A DNA stretch of 64,000 nucleotides, taken from NCBI RefSeq assembly GCF_988243305.1, contig NZ_OZ547136.1, one strand, 5' to 3'. Made by a program: the position numbers and the translations under genes. The stretch's first letter is position 1, and each line of letters begins with the position of its first letter. This document shows positions 831 through 53,053 of this stretch, one piece after another. The notes beneath the pieces were generated by a model. The model ran no database searches. It had not been told where the DNA came from and was given only the letters and a program-made list of their open reading frames with translations.

Positions 831-3128
831 TTACAGCAACTCAAACTCGCCTTTCTTAACGCGTGCGGAATCAGTGCCGATAAAGACATTGAACTTGCCA
901 GGCTCGGCGTCATATTTCATCTGTTGATTCCAGAACTTCAGCGCCTCAATATCAATCGGGAAGCTGACGGTCTGGGTTTCGCCTGGTTTCAGGGTGATTT
1001 TCTCAAAGCCTTTCAGCTGCTTCACCGGACGACTCATGGAAGCCGTCACATCCTGCAAGTACATCTGCACTACCGTCGCCCCTTCGCGCTTACCGGTGTT
1101 CGTCACCTGCACACTGGCGGTCACTTTGCCGTCACGCTTCATGGTCGGCGCAGAAAGTTTCACATCAGAGACGGTGAAAGTGGTATAGCTCAGACCATAG
1201 CCGAACGGATAAAGCGCCCCGTTAGCTTCATCAAAATAACGCGAAGTGTATTTGTTCGGCTTGTCGGCATTATACGGACGCCCGGTGTTCAGATGGCTGT
1301 AGTACACCGGGATCTGCCCGACAGAACGCGGGAAGGACATCGGCAGCTTGCCGGACGGGTTGTAATCGCCAAACAATACATCGGCAATCGCATTCCCCCC
1401 TTCAGTCCCCGCAAACCAGGTTTCCAGAATCGCATCAGCCTGCTGATCTTCTTTCACCAGCGCCAGCGGACGCCCATTCATCAGCACCAGCACCAGCGGT
1501 TTACCGGTGGCTTTCAGCGCCGCAATCAAGTCACGTTGGCTTTGCGGAATAGTGATATCGGTACGGCTGGAAGCCTCGTGCGCCATCCCCTGTGCTTCAC
1601 CGACCACAGCCACCACCACATCAGATTGTTTCGCGGTTTGCACCGCTTCATCAATCATCTCTTGCGGCGAGCGCGGGTCGACTTTGACCGCCTCTTCATA
1701 CTGATTCAGGAAATCGATAATGCCTTTGTCACTGGTAACGTTCGCCCCTTTGGCGTACAGCACTTTACCGTTTTCACCGACGGCATTTTTAATCCCGGTC
1801 AGTACGGTCACGGATTGATCGGCAACACCGGCTGCGGACCAGCTGCCCATCACGTCACGTTTGCTGTCTGCCAGTGGCCCAACCACCGCAATGGTGGCTG
1901 ATTTTTTCAGCGGTAACGTTTCGAGACGGTTTTTCAGTAACACCAGGCTTTCGCGTGCCACTTCACGCGCTTCTTTACGGTGCAGGCGGCTTTCGGCATT
2001 GGTATCCACCGGGTCAGACTCTTTCGGACCGAGATGGCTGTACGGGTCGTTAAACAACCCCATATCATATTTAACGTTCAGTACATGACGGGCAGCGTCA
2101 TCCAGCTCTTCCATCGTCACTTTGCCGGATTTGATCAACCCAGGCAGATACTTCGAGTAATACTCGTCGCTCATACTCATGTTGATGCCGGATTTCAGCG
2201 CCACGCGCACCGCATCTTCCGGGTCTGCCGCCGTGCCATGTTTAATCAGCTCTTTGATTGCGCCGTGATCGGAAACGGTGATGCCTTTAAAGCCCCACTG
2301 GTCGCGCAGAACATCTTTCAGCAGCCAGGAGTCGGAGGTGGCTGGCGTACCGTTCAGCGAGTTCAGCGCCACCATCACCGCGCCGCTGCCTGCGTCCAGC
2401 CCCGCTTTGTACGGCGGCATATAATCATTAAACAGGCGCTGCGGACTCATATCGACGGTGTTGTACTCTTTACCGCCTTCTACCGCGCCGTATGCGGCAA
2501 AGTGTTTGACGCTGGTCATCACCGAGTAGCGATCTGCCGGGCTTTTACCCTGCATCGCTTCCACCATGGTTTTACCCATTGTTGAAGTGAGATACGTATC
2601 TTCGCCAAAACCTTCGGAAGCACGTCCCCAGCGCGGATCGCGCGAGACATCGACCATCGGTGCCCAGGTCATATTCAGGCCATCATCTGCCGCTTCATAA
2701 GCAGAGACACGTCCGACCGTTTTCACCGCATCGAGGTTAAAAGACGAGGCCAGACCGAGGCTAATCGGGAACACCGTGCGCTGACCGTGCAGCACGTCGT
2801 AAGCAAAGAAAAGAGGAATTTTCAGGCGGCTTAATTCCATCACCTGATCCTGCATGGCGCGGATATCCTGACGGGTTACGGTGTTGAAAATCGCCCCAAC
2901 CTGCCCGTCTTTGATCATCTCGCGGATCGCCTCTTTCGGATTATCCGGGCCGACGCTGATTAAGCGCAGCTGACCAATTTTCTCATCAACCGTCATTTTC
3001 TTAAGCAGTTCGGTGACGAACGCATCCCGCGCTTCAGGCGTTAAGGGATGGTTACCGAATAAATCATCCGCCAGTGCTGGCTGCAGGGCCAGACTCACCG
3101 CGATTCCTACTGAACATAGCCATTTCAT
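831..3128 (-). CDS. bglX: Periplasmic beta-D-glucoside glucohydrolase (GH3)
   Basis: 765-aa product starting MKWLCSVGIAVSLALQPALA (signal peptide); ORF-track N-terminal extension rejected. Confidence 0.95.
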   Translation of the reverse strand: MKWLCSVGIAVSLALQPALADDLFGNHPLTPEARDAFVTELLKKMTVDEKIGQLRLISVGPDNPKEAIREMIKDGQVGAIFNTVTRQDIRAMQDQVMELSRLKIPLFFAYDVLHGQRTVFPISLGLASSFNLDAVKTVGRVSAYEAADDGLNMTWAPMVDVSRDPRWGRASEGFGEDTYLTSTMGKTMVEAMQGKSPADRYSVMTSVKHFAAYGAVEGGKEYNTVDMSPQRLFNDYMPPYKAGLDAGSGAVMVALNSLNGTPATSDSWLLKDVLRDQWGFKGITVSDHGAIKELIKHGTAADPEDAVRVALKSGINMSMSDEYYSKYLPGLIKSGKVTMEELDDAARHVLNVKYDMGLFNDPYSHLGPKESDPVDTNAESRLHRKEAREVARESLVLLKNRLETLPLKKSATIAVVGPLADSKRDVMGSWSAAGVADQSVTVLTGIKNAVGENGKVLYAKGANVTSDKGIIDFLNQYEEAVKVDPRSPQEMIDEAVQTAKQSDVVVAVVGEAQGMAHEASSRTDITIPQSQRDLIAALKATGKPLVLVLMNGRPLALVKEDQQADAILETWFAGTEGGNAIADVLFGDYNPSGKLPMSFPRSVGQIPVYYSHLNTGRPYNADKPNKYTSRYFDEANGALYPFGYGLSYTTFTVSDVKLSAPTMKRDGKVTASVQVTNTGKREGATVVQMYLQDVTASMSRPVKQLKGFEKITLKPGETQTVSFPIDIEALKFWNQQMKYDAEPGKFNVFIGTDSARVKKGEFELL

Positions 3129-3323
3129 ATGGATTTTTCTTCCTCTGTTGCCCGACGAGGCAGCGAAAATGGTGCAAAAACCGTAGTTTGCCATAAGCAT
3201 GGTGGAGAGAGAAAAAGAATGCTCAGTTTATTGTCTGAATTTTCAAAATATTCACTCGCTGAATTGTCATACAAGGCGCTATTCTAGTTTGTGATATTTT
3301 TTCGCCACCACAAGGAGTGGAAA

Positions 3324-5039
3324 ATGTCTTCCATGACAACAACTGATAATAAAGCCTTTTTGAATGAACTTGCCCGACTGGTGGGTTCTTCACACCTGCT
3401 CACCGATCCCGCAAAAACGGCCCGCTATCGCAAGGGCTTCCGTTCTGGTCAGGGCGATGCACTGGCTGTCGTTTTCCCTGGCTCACTACTGGAATTGTGG
3501 CGGGTGCTGAAAGCCTGCGTCACCGCTGACAAAATTATTCTGATGCAGGCTGCCAATACAGGCCTGACCGAAGGATCGACGCCAAACGGTAACGATTATG
3601 ATCGCGATATCGTGATCATCAGCACCCTGCGTCTCGATAAGTTGCACGTCCTCGGTAAGGGCGAACAGGTGCTGGCCTATCCTGGCACCACGCTTTATTC
3701 GCTGGAAAAAGCCCTCAAACCTCTGGGACGCGAACCGCACTCAGTGATTGGATCATCGTGTATAGGCGCATCGGTCATCGGCGGTATTTGTAACAACTCC
3801 GGCGGCTCGCTGGTGCAACGTGGCCCGGCGTATACCGAAATGTCGTTATTCGCGCGTATAAATGAAGATGGCAAACTGACGCTGGTGAACCATCTGGGGA
3901 TTGATCTGGGCGAAACGCCGGAGCAGATCCTTAGCAAGCTGGATGACGATCGCATCAAAGATGACGATGTGCGCCACGATGGTCGTCACGCCCACGATTA
4001 TGACTATGTCCACCGCGTTCGTGATATTGAAGCCAACACGCCCGCACGTTATAACGCCGATCCGGATCGGTTATTTGAATCTTCTGGTTGCGCCGGGAAG
4101 CTGGCCGTCTTTGCGGTACGTCTTGATACCTTCGAAGCGGAAAAAAATCAGCAGGTGTTTTATATCGGCACCAACCAGCCGGAAGTACTGACCGAAATCC
4201 GCCGTCATATTCTGGCTAATTTCGAAAATCTGCCGGTTGCCGGGGAATATATGCACCGGGATATCTACGATATTGCGGAAAAATACGGCAAAGACACCTT
4301 CCTGATGATTGATAAGTTAGGCACCGACAAGATGCCGTTCTTCTTTAATCTCAAGGGGCGCACCGATGCGATGCTGGAGAAAGTGAAATTCTTCCGTCCG
4401 CATTTTACCGACCGTGCGATGCAAAAATTCGGTCACCTGTTCCCCAGCCATTTACCGCCGCGCATGAAAAACTGGCGCGATAAATACGAGCATCATCTGC
4501 TGTTAAAAATGGCGGGCGATGGCGTCGGTGAAGCCAAATCGTGGCTGGTGGATTATTTCAAACAGGCCGAAGGCGATTTCTTTGTCTGTACGCCGGAGGA
4601 AGGCAGCAAAGCGTTTTTACACCGTTTCGCCGCTGCGGGCGCAGCAATTCGTTATCAGGCGGTGCATTCCGATGAAGTCGAAGACATTCTGGCTCTGGAT
4701 ATTGCTCTCCGGCGTAATGACACCGAGTGGTATGAACATTTACCGCCGGAGATCGACAGCCAACTGGTGCACAAGCTCTATTACGGCCATTTTATGTGCT
4801 ATGTCTTCCATCAGGATTACATCGTTAAAAAAGGCGTGGATGTGCATGCGTTGAAAGAACAGATGCTGGAACTGCTACAGCAGCGCGGCGCGCAATACCC
4901 TGCCGAGCATAACGTCGGTCATTTGTATAAAGCACCGGAGACGTTGCAGAAGTTTTATCGCGAGAACGATCCGACCAACAGCATGAATCCGGGGATCGGT
5001 AAAACCAGTAAGCGGAAAAACTGGCAGGAAGTGGAGTAA
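3324..5039 (+). CDS. dld: FAD-dependent D-lactate dehydrogenase (quinone)
   Basis: 571-aa product starting MSSMTTTDNKAFLNELARLVG; ATG at 3324 is preceded by aaggagtgg RBS. Confidence 0.95.
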   Translation: MSSMTTTDNKAFLNELARLVGSSHLLTDPAKTARYRKGFRSGQGDALAVVFPGSLLELWRVLKACVTADKIILMQAANTGLTEGSTPNGNDYDRDIVIISTLRLDKLHVLGKGEQVLAYPGTTLYSLEKALKPLGREPHSVIGSSCIGASVIGGICNNSGGSLVQRGPAYTEMSLFARINEDGKLTLVNHLGIDLGETPEQILSKLDDDRIKDDDVRHDGRHAHDYDYVHRVRDIEANTPARYNADPDRLFESSGCAGKLAVFAVRLDTFEAEKNQQVFYIGTNQPEVLTEIRRHILANFENLPVAGEYMHRDIYDIAEKYGKDTFLMIDKLGTDKMPFFFNLKGRTDAMLEKVKFFRPHFTDRAMQKFGHLFPSHLPPRMKNWRDKYEHHLLLKMAGDGVGEAKSWLVDYFKQAEGDFFVCTPEEGSKAFLHRFAAAGAAIRYQAVHSDEVEDILALDIALRRNDTEWYEHLPPEIDSQLVHKLYYGHFMCYVFHQDYIVKKGVDVHALKEQMLELLQQRGAQYPAEHNVGHLYKAPETLQKFYRENDPTNSMNPGIGKTSKRKNWQEVE

Positions 5040-14849: not shown

Positions 14850-15042
14850 TATTTTCTCTTTTCTGTTAATTATTGAGAATAATTATTACTTCACTCAATA
14901 AGCTGCGGATATAACATTCTGAACCGCAGCTATTTGTGAATCCTTTCACAGTATAAATTTCCCCACGCGCATAGCCTTAATATCAGCACGCAATATTTAT
15001 TTAGCGTTCGCCTTAATTACTCATAGCATTAAGGAAGATCAC

Positions 15043-21186: not shown

Positions 21187-21437
21187 GGTATCTCCGGTTT
21201 TTCTTATGCAGGGTAGTGCTTGAGATAAATGCTCGGCGGGGCAGTAGAGTTAATGAAGTGTTACTGAACGCCGAAGCTCACTTTTTAAAATTCGTTCTTC
21301 CATGCCCGGTAACGCTCCAGAAAACGGCTTTAATTGTTGTTATGACGCTATTACCTCGGTGAAAGTGATTATTCACTGTTACATACGGGTTACAACGTTA
21401 AAACGGTGCAATCATAGCTATCACATTGTTAAGATAC

Positions 21438-40066: not shown

Positions 40067-40305
40067 AGCACGTCCTCTGGTAAAAAATTACCACCCCTGT
40101 CAATCCACAAGAATATTGATACTGCAAAGACGGTTTAAACATGTGTTCATATTTAAACATGTGCTCATAGTATGCATGTTTTACGTAAAGTAAATTACCG
40201 CCAGAGAGGCAAAATGGGCAGATTTGAGCAGGCTCACAAAACGCGATTAAATGCCTGAATTATAAAAACGGGGAATTTGTGACGGGATGCACAGAACAGG
40301 AACAA

Positions 40306-48599: not shown

Positions 48600-49586
48600 G
48601 TGACCAGGACCAACCTCATCACCGGTTTTCTCGGCAGCGGGAAAACTACGTCGATTCTTCATCTTTTAGCCCATAAAGATCCCAACGAAAAATGGGCGGT
48701 ACTGGTTAATGAATTTGGGGAAGTCGGAATTGATGGTGCTTTGCTCGCCGATAGCGGCGCATTGCTGAAAGAGATCCCCGGCGGCTGCATGTGCTGCGTT
48801 AATGGTTTACCCATGCAGGTAGGGTTGAATACCTTACTGCGTCAGGGAAAACCAGACCGCTTGTTGATAGAGCCGACCGGACTGGGTCATCCGAAACAGA
48901 TCCTAGATCTCTTAACCGCGCCCGTGTATGAACCGTGGATAGATCTGCGCGCCACGTTGTGCATTCTCGATCCACGCCTGCTGCTGGACGAAAAAAGCGC
49001 CAGCAATGAAAACTTCCGTGACCAGCTGGCTGCCGCAGACATTATTGTCGCCAATAAATCCGACCGTGCGACGCCCGAAAGTGAGCAAGCGCTACAGCGC
49101 TGGTGGCAGCAAAATGGTGGCGATCGGCAATTAATTCACAGCGAGCATGGGAAAATTGACGGTCATCTTCTGGATTTGCCGCGTCGCAATTTAGCCGAGT
49201 TGCCCGCCAGCGCCGCACATTCTCATCATCATAGCGTGAAAAAAGGGTTAGCAGCGTTAAGCCTGCCAGAGCATCAACGCTGGCGTCGCAGTCTGAACAG
49301 CGGGCAAGGATATCAGGCCTGCGGCTGGATATTCGACGCTGATACGGTATTCGACACCATTGGCATTCTGGAATGGGCGCGACTTGCATCGGTAGAACGC
49401 GTCAAAGGCGTGCTGCGTATTCCCGAAGGGCTGGTGCGAATCAACCGTCAGGGCGATGACCTGCACATTGAAACGCAAAACATTGCGCCACCGGACAGCC
49501 GTATTGAGCTGATTTCCAGCAGCGAAGCTGACTGGAATGCCTTGCAGAGCGCGCTGTTGAAGCTTCGTTTAGCGACTACCGCGTAA
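48600..49586 (+). CDS. yeiR: COG0523/CobW-family GTPase (putative zinc metallochaperone)
   Basis: 328-aa product with GTG start; GFLGSGKTT P-loop and GCMCC motif. Confidence 0.9.
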   Translation: MTRTNLITGFLGSGKTTSILHLLAHKDPNEKWAVLVNEFGEVGIDGALLADSGALLKEIPGGCMCCVNGLPMQVGLNTLLRQGKPDRLLIEPTGLGHPKQILDLLTAPVYEPWIDLRATLCILDPRLLLDEKSASNENFRDQLAAADIIVANKSDRATPESEQALQRWWQQNGGDRQLIHSEHGKIDGHLLDLPRRNLAELPASAAHSHHHSVKKGLAALSLPEHQRWRRSLNSGQGYQACGWIFDADTVFDTIGILEWARLASVERVKGVLRIPEGLVRINRQGDDLHIETQNIAPPDSRIELISSSEADWNALQSALLKLRLATTA

Positions 49587-49624
49587 GGTTGCCTGCGTTT
49601 TTCAGTAAGATAATTAGAGAAAAT

Positions 49625-50338
49625 ATGATTAAAAATTTGCCGCAAATAGTGTTGTTGAATATTGTCGGCCTCGCGCTGTTTCTTTCCTGGTATATACCCG
49701 TTAATCATGGATTCTGGTTGCCGATTGATGCGGATATTTTTTATTTCTTTAATCAGAAACTGGTCGAAAGTAAGGCCTTTTTGTGGCTGGTTGCATTGAC
49801 CAACAATCGCGCTTTCGACGGTTGTTCACTGCTGGCGATGGGAATGTTGATGCTGAGTTTCTGGCTGAAAGAACACGCCCCAGGCAGACGACGTATCGTG
49901 ATTATTGGTCTGGTCATGCTATTAACTGCAGTGGTATTAAACCAGCTGGGTCAGGCATTAATTCCTGTAAAACGGGCCAGCCCAACATTGACTTTTACCG
50001 ATATTAACCGCGTCAGCGAACTGCTCTCTGTTCCCACGAAAGATGCCTCACGAGATAGCTTTCCCGGCGATCACGGTATGATGCTGCTTATTTTTTCGGC
50101 ATTCATGTGGCGTTATTTCGGCAAAGTTGCAGGCCTTATCGCCCTTATTATTTTTGTGGTTTTTGCGTTTCCCAGAGTAATGATTGGCGCACACTGGTTT
50201 ACTGACATCATTGTCGGTTCGATGACCGTGATATTGATCGGTTTGCCCTGGGTGTTGCTGACGCCATTAAGTGATCGATTAATCACCTTTTTTGACAAAT
50301 CACTACCGGGAAAAAACAAACATTTCCAAAACAAATAA
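49625..50338 (+). CDS. lpxT: Lipid A 1-diphosphate synthase (undecaprenyl-pyrophosphate phosphotransferase)
   Basis: Product MIKNLPQIVLLNIVGLALFLSWYIPVNHGFWLPIDADIFYFF..., PAP2 family; 237 aa. Confidence 0.9.
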   Translation: MIKNLPQIVLLNIVGLALFLSWYIPVNHGFWLPIDADIFYFFNQKLVESKAFLWLVALTNNRAFDGCSLLAMGMLMLSFWLKEHAPGRRRIVIIGLVMLLTAVVLNQLGQALIPVKRASPTLTFTDINRVSELLSVPTKDASRDSFPGDHGMMLLIFSAFMWRYFGKVAGLIALIIFVVFAFPRVMIGAHWFTDIIVGSMTVILIGLPWVLLTPLSDRLITFFDKSLPGKNKHFQNK

Positions 50339-50749
50339 CTCACAGTAATTAACATCATCAGGGTTATTTTTATAGTGAGGATAATCCTGATGATGCGCAC
50401 CGTGCTTTCATCTATCGAACGCAAAAATCATTCTCTAAGTAAATGAATGGATTGCATGCGTTTCACTCAATCGTACTTTAATTGACCAATCCCGCTTATT
50501 AACTTTCTGTATCACTTTTTCTTATAAAAAATCATGTAAAACCGCTCGCCAAGACCGCACCAATCGGGTAATCTCGAACTCGTTTTGCCTCGGCGGTAGA
50601 TTATCCTCACAGCATATAATTTTGTGCGTTAGTCCACAGATTTGGCCTTAAGGAATTGTTTCAACATGCCCAGGTAATTAGTCTCGTGTCGCTTGGCATT
50701 TTTTTATAACGATATTTGTCGTTAAGGACTTCAAGGGAAAACAAACAAC

Positions 50750-51316
50750 ATGGTCAAATCTCAACCGATTTTGAGATATATCTTGCGCGGGATCCCCGCG
50801 ATTGCAGTAGCGGTTCTGCTTTCTGCATGTAGTGCAAATAACACCGCAAAGAATATGCATCCTGAGACACGTGCAGTGGGTAGTGAAACATCATCACTGC
50901 AAGCTTCTCAGGATGAATTTGAAAACCTGGTTCGTAATGTCGACGTAAAATCGCGAATTATGGATCAGTATGCTGACTGGAAAGGCGTACGCTATCGTCT
51001 GGGCGGCAGCACTAAAAAAGGTATCGATTGTTCTGGTTTCGTACAGCGTACATTCCGTGAGCAATTTGGCTTAGAACTTCCGCGTTCGACTTACGAACAG
51101 CAGGAAATGGGTAAATCTGTTTCCCGCAGTAATTTGCGTACGGGTGATTTAGTTCTGTTCCGTGCCGGTTCAACAGGACGCCATGTCGGTATTTATATCG
51201 GCAACAATCAGTTTGTCCATGCTTCCACCAGCAGTGGTGTTATTATTTCCAGCATGAATGAACCGTACTGGAAGAAGCGTTACAACGAAGCACGCCGGGT
51301 TCTCAGCCGCAGCTAA
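50750..51316 (+). CDS. mepS: Murein DD-endopeptidase MepS (Spr), NlpC/P60 lipoprotein
   Basis: 188-aa product [30 protein letters not shown]... (lipobox). Confidence 0.95.
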
Positions 51317-51362
51317 TAAACCGTTTGGATGCAATCCCTTGGCTATCCTGACGAGTTAACTG

Positions 51363-51390
51363 AAAGCACTGCTTAGGCAGTGCTTTTTTG
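51363..51390 (+). terminator. Intrinsic terminator after mepS
   Basis: aaagcactgcttaggcagtgcttttttg hairpin plus T-run. Confidence 0.75.
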
Positions 51391-51496
51391 TTTTCATTCA
51401 TCAGAGAAAATGATGTTTCCGCGTCTTGATCCAGGCTATAGTCCGGTCATTGTTATCTTTTAAATGTTGTCGTAATTTCAGGAAATTAACGGAATC

Positions 51497-53053
51497 ATGT
51501 TCATACGCGCTCCCAATTCTGGACGTAAGCTCCTGCTTACCTGCATTGTTGCAGGCGTGATGATTGCGATACTGGTGAGCTGCCTTCAGTTTTTAGTGGC
51601 CTGGCATAAGCACGAAGTCAAATACGACACACTGATTACCGACGTACAAAAGTATCTCGATACCTATTTTGCCGACCTGAAATCCACTACTGACCGGCTC
51701 CAGCCGCTGACCTTAGATACCTGCCAGCAGGCTAACCCCGAACTGACTGCCCGCGCGGCGTTTAGCATGAATGTCCGTACGTTTGTGCTGGTAAAAGATA
51801 AAAAAACATTCTGTTCATCTGCGACTGGTGAGATGGACATTCCACTCAATGAATTGATTCCGGCGCTCGACATTAATAAAAACGTCGATATGGCGATCTT
51901 ACCCGGTACGCCGATGGTGCCGAACAAACCCGCAATCGTCATCTGGTATCGCAACCCGTTGTTGAAAAATAGCGGCGTCTTTGCCGCGCTGAATCTCAAC
52001 CTGACGCCTTCACTCTTTTATAGTTCACGGCAGGAAGATTACGATGGCGTCGCCCTCATTATTGGCAATACTGCGCTATCTACCTTTTCTTCACGTTTGA
52101 TGAACGTTAATGAATTAACCGACATGCCGGTCCGTGAAACTAAAATTGCGGGCATTCCTCTGACCGTTCGGCTTTATGCGGATGACTGGACATGGAACGA
52201 TGTGTGGTACGCATTTTTACTGGGCGGCATGAGTGGAACTGTCGTTGGCCTGCTTTGCTATTACCTGATGAGCGTACGTATGCGCCCCGGCAGAGAAATC
52301 ATGACCGCCATCAAGCGCGAACAATTTTACGTGGCGTATCAACCGGTGGTGGATACACAAGCTTTGCGGGTAACGGGCCTGGAAGTACTGCTACGCTGGC
52401 GGCATCCTGTAGCGGGAGAAATTCCCCCGGATGCCTTCATTAACTTTGCCGAATCGCAAAAGATGATTGTGCCGCTGACTCAGCACCTGTTTGAGTTAAT
52501 TGCCCGCGATGCCGCAGAATTAGAAAAAGTACTGCCGGTAGGCGTCAAATTTGGCATTAACATTGCGCCGGACCATCTGCACAGCGAAAGCTTTAAAGCA
52601 GATATCCAGAAACTGCTCACTTCCCTGCCCGCACACCATTTCCAGATTGTGCTGGAAATTACCGAGCGCGATATGCTGAAAGAGCAAGAAGCCACGCAAC
52701 TCTTTGCCTGGCTACACTCGGTCGGCGTAGAAATTGCTATTGATGACTTCGGTACCGGGCACAGCGCGCTTATCTACCTTGAGCGTTTTACGCTCGATTA
52801 TCTGAAAATTGACCGTGGATTTATCAACGCCATCGGTACGGAAACGATCACTTCACCCGTACTTGACGCGGTGCTGACGCTGGCGAAACGTCTCAATATG
52901 CTGACGGTTGCTGAAGGGGTCGAAACGCCGGAACAGGCGCGATGGCTAAACGAACGCGGCGTTAATTTCATGCAAGGCTACTGGATTAGTCGCCCGTTAC
53001 CGCTGGACGATTTTGTCCGCTGGCTGAAGAAACCGTATACGCCGCAGTGGTAA
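51497..53053 (+). CDS. rtn: c-di-GMP phosphodiesterase (CSS-motif sensor plus EAL domain)
   Basis: 518-aa product MFIRAPNSGRKLLLTCIVAGVMIAILVSCLQFLVAWHKHEV...; EAL-type C-terminal domain. Confidence 0.9.
   Translation: MFIRAPNSGRKLLLTCIVAGVMIAILVSCLQFLVAWHKHEVKYDTLITDVQKYLDTYFADLKSTTDRLQPLTLDTCQQANPELTARAAFSMNVRTFVLVKDKKTFCSSATGEMDIPLNELIPALDINKNVDMAILPGTPMVPNKPAIVIWYRNPLLKNSGVFAALNLNLTPSLFYSSRQEDYDGVALIIGNTALSTFSSRLMNVNELTDMPVRETKIAGIPLTVRLYADDWTWNDVWYAFLLGGMSGTVVGLLCYYLMSVRMRPGREIMTAIKREQFYVAYQPVVDTQALRVTGLEVLLRWRHPVAGEIPPDAFINFAESQKMIVPLTQHLFELIARDAAELEKVLPVGVKFGINIAPDHLHSESFKADIQKLLTSLPAHHFQIVLEITERDMLKEQEATQLFAWLHSVGVEIAIDDFGTGHSALIYLERFTLDYLKIDRGFINAIGTETITSPVLDAVLTLAKRLNMLTVAEGVETPEQARWLNERGVNFMQGYWISRPLPLDDFVRWLKKPYTPQW

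Follow-up and report, generated by a model that had tools for sequence, protein, structure and literature searches.

The 411-bp stretch between lpxT, which ends at position 50338, and mepS, which starts at position 50750, raises the question of what occupies so long a gap and whether the imperfect palindrome that directly follows lpxT is part of the answer. We studied this gap in an Escherichia coli window of 64,000 nucleotides (i.e., the whole stretch of DNA analyzed), which is collinear with K-12 MG1655, such that the window coordinate plus 2,219,229 gives the NC_000913.3 coordinate. The RefSeq annotation of the gap holds no feature in any of its 411 bp. The original prediction gave the same length, which we also found in K-12 MG1655, and the region from 50200 to 50900 was present as a single copy in 5425 out of 5426 complete genomes. 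The description of the gap as unusually long is accurate only in part: according to the K-12 annotation, it is the second longest of the ~52 gaps in the window, with only the psuK-fruA gap being longer (422 bp), while other long gaps are those between yohP and dusC (372 bp) and between fruB and setB (367 bp).

For comparison, we collected the mepS locus from 80 Enterobacteriaceae species, in 79 of which lpxT is the upstream neighbor. The distance between the two genes ranged from 410 to 426 bp in most of these 79 species, despite an LpxT identity of just 64 to 82%. Cross-genus conservation was low from 50396 to ~50498 and increased steeply from 50499 on. Two further observations concern the borders of the gap. 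The sequence AATTAAC (50346–50353), located just 3′ of the lpxT stop codon, shows cross-genus conservation that has no obvious explanation, and AAAACAAATAAC at the end of lpxT (50328–50339) recurs as AAAACAAACAAC (50738–50749) directly before the mepS ATG, with 11 of 12 positions being identical.

Based on the evidence presented below, the gap very probably consists, from end to end, of ordinary elements, namely the 3′-end hairpin of the lpxT mRNA followed by the control region and leader of mepS (Table 1). This accounts for the unannotated 411 bp and carries little significance for the window itself.

Table 1. Elements of the lpxT-mepS gap in window coordinates, listed in the direction of transcription
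Feature	Position	Strand	Basis or details
lpxT 3′-end hairpin	50353–50395	+	Inverted repeat, RNA fold, cross-genus hairpin, covariation
Mapped RNA 3′ end	50398	+	Term-seq (Adams et al. 2021), 3 nt past the last paired base
Spacer, slightly C-rich and G-poor, with possible Pho box remnant at 50406–50423	50396–50498	+	Low cross-genus conservation
Deeply conserved block upstream of P2	50499–50544	+	TTAACTTTCTGTATCAC then CTTATAAAAAATCA; −82 to −38 from the P2 start
mepS P2	50546–50581	+	−35 TCGCCA 50546–50551; −10 TAATCT 50569–50574; TSS 50581; boxes conserved
CRP binding site TGTGCGTTAGTCCACA	50623–50638	.	ChIP-seq, E. coli 042
mepS P1	50656–50691	+	−35 TTGTTT 50656–50661; −10 TAGTCT 50679–50684; TSS 50691
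Leader hairpin UAACGA-loop-UCGUUA	50707–50724	+	RNAalifold, 30 species
OxyS pairing site GACUUCAAGGG	50727–50737	+	Overlaps the Shine-Dalgarno region; near-invariant across genera
Term-seq 3′ ends	50744–50746	+	K-12 2269973 and 2269975; 4–6 nt before the mepS ATG

The palindrome is most plausibly the 3′-end hairpin of the lpxT mRNA, a reading absent from the original prediction, which had described an imperfect inverted repeat lacking a terminator U-run. Both parts of that description proved accurate. The arms (50353–50367 and 50381–50395) are complementary at 14 out of 15 positions with 13 nt between them, and the tail that follows the stem, CGCACCGTGC, has a single T in its first 10 nt. As RNA of the (+) strand, the segment begins 14 nt past the lpxT stop codon and forms a stem of 20 bp, four of them G-U pairs, capped by a 3-nt loop (−25.8 kcal/mol versus a mean of −11.9 for shuffled sequences; z = −4.84), and none of 200 shuffles yielded an equally good fold. 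The stem is AT-rich, with only 5 of its 20 pairs being G-C.

An RNA 3′ end has been mapped right next to this hairpin by Term-seq, at K-12 position 2269627 on the (+) strand (score 1323; Adams et al. 2021, PMC7815308, supplementary file 1). We verified the offset from K-12 to the window for this end against the sequence printed in the Adams 2021 table. The end is represented by a single, low-scoring entry in the three-condition table of that study (PMC7815308), where it was labeled as an "orphan" because it lies 60 nt beyond the lpxT stop codon; it can now be attributed to lpxT. The gene itself is weakly expressed, with two TSS reads (Kim 2012), and our literature searches returned no coverage of the lpxT 3′ UTR.

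The original prediction had left the conservation of the palindrome across Enterobacteriaceae for checking, and 74 out of 81 sequences proved to have a hairpin with 8 or more base pairs downstream of the lpxT stop codon, most commonly in the form CATCAGGGATCG-TTTT-CGATCCCTGATG. By a loose criterion, 18 of these 74 hairpins carry a T-rich tail, and a GC-rich, terminator-like hairpin followed by a T-run is clear in Kluyvera, Cedecea, and Siccibacter and also found in Buttiauxella. In an alignment of 69 sequences, both sides of the stem change at all 15 pairs, and paired cells make up 79.4% of the total, compared with 68.2% in shuffled alignments and 30 to 47% when partners are slid. Doubly changed cells numbered 127 versus 53.5 in shuffles, and the observed value was reached by none of 500 shuffles on any measure. 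Against the hairpin reading, the core CAGGGATCG..CGATCCCTG shows a degree of sequence conservation above that of most terminator stems. Among the sampled E. coli strains, the sole variable base of the stem (50363) belongs to an already imperfect pair, in which G forms a G-U pair and T or C leaves a mismatch. We rejected the idea of a repeated element, with the hairpin core occurring once per locus and the E. coli region once per genome.

Across genera, G-U cells (n = 39) were not in excess over A-C cells (n = 50). Hence, pairing alone cannot tell which strand is selected, or whether selection acts on RNA or DNA, and we dropped the assignment of strand by these counts. It is the mapped 3′ end, not the pairing pattern, that points to (+)-strand RNA as the selected molecule. 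Taken together, the hairpin structure is under selection, its position is that of a terminator, and it coincides with a mapped RNA end.

Since the hairpin lacks a U-tract and the RNA ends 3 nt past the stem, a stop farther downstream followed by trimming is the likeliest mechanism. In the lpxT transcript, the palindrome folds into an extended stem-loop, which sets where the steady-state mRNA ends; transcription would stop farther downstream, probably through the action of Rho on a C-rich, G-poor stretch, and 3′-5′ exonucleases would trim the RNA back to the hairpin, which may thereby shield the lpxT message. Stable stem-loops without a U-run have been reported to shield Rho-terminated transcripts from exonucleases, with the 3′ end located immediately downstream of the stem-loop and rut sites just after it (Dar & Sorek 2018, PMC6061677). 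GC skew is negative throughout 50370–50570 (−0.04 to −0.53), being weak in the first 100 nt (−0.04 to −0.14) and strongest (to −0.53) at 50470–50549. Supplement 2 of Adams 2021 (PMC7815308) lists no Rho-termination region within 2269.5–2269.9 kb and lpxT expression is low, such that absence from this list represents weak evidence.

The second option is weak, U-tract-independent termination at the hairpin itself. We consider it unlikely, though the best of the alternatives, that the hairpin is a true intrinsic terminator working without a U-tract. In its favor, the hairpins found at the homologous position in other genera are canonical terminators, and the Adams 2021 list has no Rho region for the lpxT end. 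Like an intrinsic terminator, it presents a stable stem-loop directly 3′ of the gene; however, the 10 nt 3′ of the stem contain a single T in place of a U-tract, the RNA ends at +3 rather than ~7–9 nt into a U-run, the stem has only five G-C pairs, and a terminator consensus scan of the region did not call the hairpin. That scan also produced a terminator-like call at 50564–50582, which we set aside, as it overlaps the P2 −10 box and start site.

Another reading takes the palindrome as a DNA operator, i.e., a symmetric site for a dimeric regulator of mepS or lpxT. The core CAGGGATCG-TTTT-CGATCCCTG is conserved in many genera, often with two GATC sites, while its flanks are not, and the lack of a cross-genus bias of G-U over A-C also fits a DNA site. 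We nevertheless regard an operator as improbable, given that two-sided compensatory changes preserve pairing at all 15 pairs, that an unrelated GC-rich hairpin with a T-run occupies the same spot in some genera, and that the inner stem and loop of E. coli have nothing in common with the usual core. Furthermore, an RNA 3′ end has been mapped 3 nt past the palindrome, the closest mapped promoter start (P2, 50581) is ~230 bp farther downstream, and no factor has been placed on the palindrome by ChIP.

The original prediction also raised the possibility of an unannotated small RNA in the gap. A processed 3′-UTR fragment might be capped by the hairpin, which is stable and has a mapped RNA end, and a promoter-like TTAACA-16-TATAGT at 50349–50376 could provide a start. 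This proposal gained no support. A scan of 49000–52000 with Rfam 15 gave a best E-value of 0.53, with eukaryotic miRNA and snoRNA models far below their gathering scores, and the RNA ends mapped in the gap are two transcription start sites, the hairpin 3′ end, and the 3′ ends before the mepS ATG. The two starts, those of P1 and P2, are the only ones that the tables of Mendoza-Vargas 2009 and Kim 2012 list for the gap. The hairpin does not carry the U-tail typical of Hfq-dependent small RNAs. The promoter-like match, which we rejected, has its TATAGT in the E. coli-specific loop, is not conserved, and belongs to a class of matches that is no more frequent than chance (1 in the region versus 3.4 expected).

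A small protein fares no better, as the original prediction had stated in finding no convincing ORF. The best candidate, an 18-codon ORF starting at the ATG at 50390 and extending to 50446, is preceded by a well-spaced, SD-like GAGGA, but its frame and stop differ in other Escherichia (E. albertii and two further lineages of the genus carry a frameshift or a truncation), and it accumulates several amino acid changes inside E. coli; we rejected it as not conserved. Overall, we think it very improbable that the gap encodes either a 3′-UTR-derived small RNA ending at the hairpin or a small protein.

Least probable of all is a conjectural long-range pairing of the 3′ half of the hairpin (GUGAGGAUAAUC, 50375–50386) with the P2 leader (50599–50610), by which lpxT read-through or a 3′-UTR fragment would be coupled to mepS. 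The two segments (GTGAGGATAATC and GATTATCCTCAC) form an inverted repeat without mismatch over 12 nt, a length that first-order Markov simulations of the gap reach in only 1.3% of cases (nominal p ~0.013). However, the observation is post hoc, and the segment is sequestered within the stem. Moreover, E. albertii and two other Escherichia lineages have a different inner hairpin and therefore lack the complementarity, which is thus specific to E. coli proper.

With the palindrome assigned to the 3′ end of lpxT mRNA, the remainder of the gap (~350 bp) concerns mepS. The original prediction had suggested an extended mepS leader or a regulator-binding site, and both suggestions are correct but already published, and neither involves the palindrome. 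Published tables place two transcription start sites in the gap, at 50581 (P2) and 50691 (P1), i.e., at −169 (Mendoza-Vargas 2009) and −59 (Kim 2012) from the mepS ATG. For P2, the supplement of Mendoza-Vargas 2009 lists a spr TSS at −169 with 9 reads and sigma-70 boxes CGCTCGCCA and GGTAATCT separated by a 17-nt spacer, and its position at 50581 fits the 109-nt offset between the long and short mepS mRNAs (PMC10798246). For P1, the supplement of Kim et al. 2012 gives a TSS at NC_000913.2 2267942 with 188 reads and a 59-nt UTR, and the upstream sequence printed there ends at window position 50691. The P1 hexamers, which we read from the sequence, are conserved across genera. P2 is the more active of the two promoters during exponential growth, and P1 during stationary phase (Elgrably-Weiss 2024, PMC10798246).

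Upstream of P2, the segment TTAACTTTCTGTATCAC...CTTATAAAAAATCA (50499–50534, −82 to −47) is near-invariant in the 80 species, which goes beyond the needs of a UP element alone. Its A-tract sits at the UP-element position relative to P2, and the conserved block as a whole probably combines a UP-like A-tract with a site for some factor.

The leader is almost invariant from 50675 to the ATG in 30 species. Its hairpin (50707–50724) consists of six near-invariant pairs and a covarying inner pair (UA in 14, UG in 6, CG in 3, and AU in 1), and it is the only covarying structure that found support in the 169-nt leader. A "helix" between TGTG and CACA was rejected, being invariant and better explained as a CRP site. 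Pairing of OxyS with mepS has been assigned to G37–G47 of the short mRNA and G146–G156 of the long mRNA (PMC10798246), which together with the start at 50691 places the site at the position given in Table 1. Of the Term-seq 3′ ends just before the ATG, both were classed as "upstream ORF" and 2269975 was scored as not Rho-dependent ("No") (Adams 2021, supplements 1 and 3; PMC7815308). A further Term-seq 3′ end at 50907 (K-12 2270136), 157 nt inside mepS, was likewise scored as not Rho-dependent (Adams 2021). No structure accounts for the ends at 50744–50746 and 50907.

The regulator-binding site proposed for the gap does exist, although away from the palindrome, in that ChIP-seq shows CRP at 50623–50638. 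In E. coli 042, which is 99.9% identical to the window over 50200–50900, the site has a score of 3525 with the exact motif at −119.5 and is marked "N" for listing in RegulonDB (PMC12360894, Table S2). We had marked it as a CRP candidate before the ChIP-seq entry was found. Compared with the CRP consensus TGTGA-N6-TCACA, the sequence TGTGC-GTTAGT-CCACA agrees at 4 + 4 of the 10 core positions, i.e., 4 of 5 per half-site, and neither its TGTGCG nor its CACA varies among 30 species. The pattern TGTG-N8-CACA occurs four times in the window versus 1.03 expected; other matches are located at 40278–40293 in the psuK-fruA gap and at 14935–14950 early in preT.

The center of the CRP site (50630.5) lies at −60.5 from the P1 start at 50691 and at −119.5 from the mepS ATG. 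In class I CRP promoters of the lac P1 type, the site is centered at −61.5. From this near-match in geometry, which is one bp off, CRP is predicted to activate mepS P1, and the position of the site fits a strengthening of the promoter in stationary phase. RegulonDB lists no CRP regulation of mepS, and our search found no data on CRP-dependent mepS expression. A RegulonDB-unlisted CRP site at class I distance would offer a possible route from carbon status to the amount of MepS, a cell-wall endopeptidase.

The spacer (50396–50498) that separates the lpxT hairpin from the conserved block is weakly constrained in Escherichia and has a mildly negative GC skew (−0.10 to −0.30); E. coli polymorphisms cluster within it at 50399–50421. 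In one strain, E. coli NMBU-W12E19, an IS5 family element is inserted at the equivalent of ~50421 (locus ~2622–3990), with the hairpin and both promoters intact. Outside Escherichia, the block aligned to 50406–50423 reads TGTCAT-N5-TGTCAT. Table 1 of Fitzgerald et al. 2023 gives 59 PhoB ChIP-seq sites, from which we derived a weight matrix; the median score is 15.0 for known sites, and scores of 12 or more have a background frequency of 1.5e-5 per position. The matrix recovers the published mglB-region ChIP site TGTAACCCGTATGTAACA at 21377–21394 on the (−) strand of the window.

Upstream of mepS, a Pho box (e.g., TGTCATTCTCCTGTCATC) scoring from 12 to 19.5 was found in 52 out of 77 non-Escherichia Enterobacteriaceae species, including members of Citrobacter, Enterobacter, Klebsiella, Kosakonia, Leclercia, Kluyvera, and Phytobacter. 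Almost all of these boxes are on the mepS strand at a fixed position of −339 to −346 from the mepS ATG (~2655–2680 in the fetched loci), and a TAnAAT-like −10 hexamer follows 10–11 nt after the box, compared with 9 nt at pstS, phoA, ugpB, and phoB. A strong Pho box is absent from all four Escherichia sequences, Escherichia having lost the second Pho repeat and the −11 A. The aligned E. coli 18-mer, TTTCATCTATCGAACGCA, has a score of only 2.6 and the top-scoring site of the gap one of 6.3, neither of them showing TGTCA repeats with an 11-bp period, and the K-12 PhoB ChIP-seq table has no peak between 2240543 and 2438961.

The simplest reading of the cross-genus Pho box is an ancestral module that decayed in Escherichia, and it is conceivable, although we hold this view tentatively, that 50396–50460 is the wreck of such a PhoB-dependent module. 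If true, the module would have provided a third mepS promoter responding to phosphate starvation, with a leader of ~300 nt, or else a small transcript. Full-text literature searches returned no link between PhoB or phosphate and mepS. A PhoB ChIP site upstream of yhjJ has been reported at K-12 3682037, outside the window (Fitzgerald 2023), and YhjJ (BipP) is described in a 2026 review as restraining the degradation of MepS by NlpI-Prc. Speculatively, E. coli may therefore retain a PhoB-MepS link indirectly through the yhjJ (bipP) site. Of the leads from this gap, only the Pho box of other genera goes beyond ordinary elements. The conserved gap length and blocks, together with the loss of the Pho box in Escherichia, suggest that mepS is regulated differently in E. 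coli than in its relatives, a difference that matters when results from E. coli are carried over to Klebsiella or Enterobacter.

Compared with known systems, the elements of the gap show varying degrees of likeness. The mepS leader matches the OxyS-mepS system (Elgrably-Weiss 2024, PMC10798246) without any difference, having the same two promoters and the same OxyS site, to which we add only the window coordinates and the cross-genus invariance. The CRP site resembles those of class I promoters in its TGTGN8CACA sequence, in being bound by CRP in vivo, and in lying one helical position upstream of the weak −35 box of a promoter that is stronger in stationary phase, but its center is one bp off and each half-site agrees at only four of five positions. 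The box found in 52 species scores as bona fide E. coli PhoB sites do and, like the Pho-box promoters of pstS, phoA, ugpB, and phoB, is followed by a −10-like TAnAAT; in contrast to these, it is missing in E. coli (score of 2.6 and no ChIP peak) and the distance to the −10 hexamer is 10–11 rather than 9 nt.

For the palindrome, there are two systems to consider. As in canonical intrinsic terminators, a stem-loop stands just after the stop codon of lpxT, and the orthologues in Kluyvera, Cedecea, and Siccibacter are GC-rich with a T-run, whereas the E. coli hairpin combines an AT-rich 20-bp stem and an end at +3 with no U-tract. The class described by Dar & Sorek differs from lpxT in that here we infer both Rho dependence and exonuclease protection, with no Rho region recorded in Adams 2021; in its architecture, however, the lpxT 3′ end resembles this class, having a stem-loop without a U-rich tail, an adjoining RNA 3′ end, and C-rich, G-poor sequence after it, although the skew is weak in the first 100 nt.
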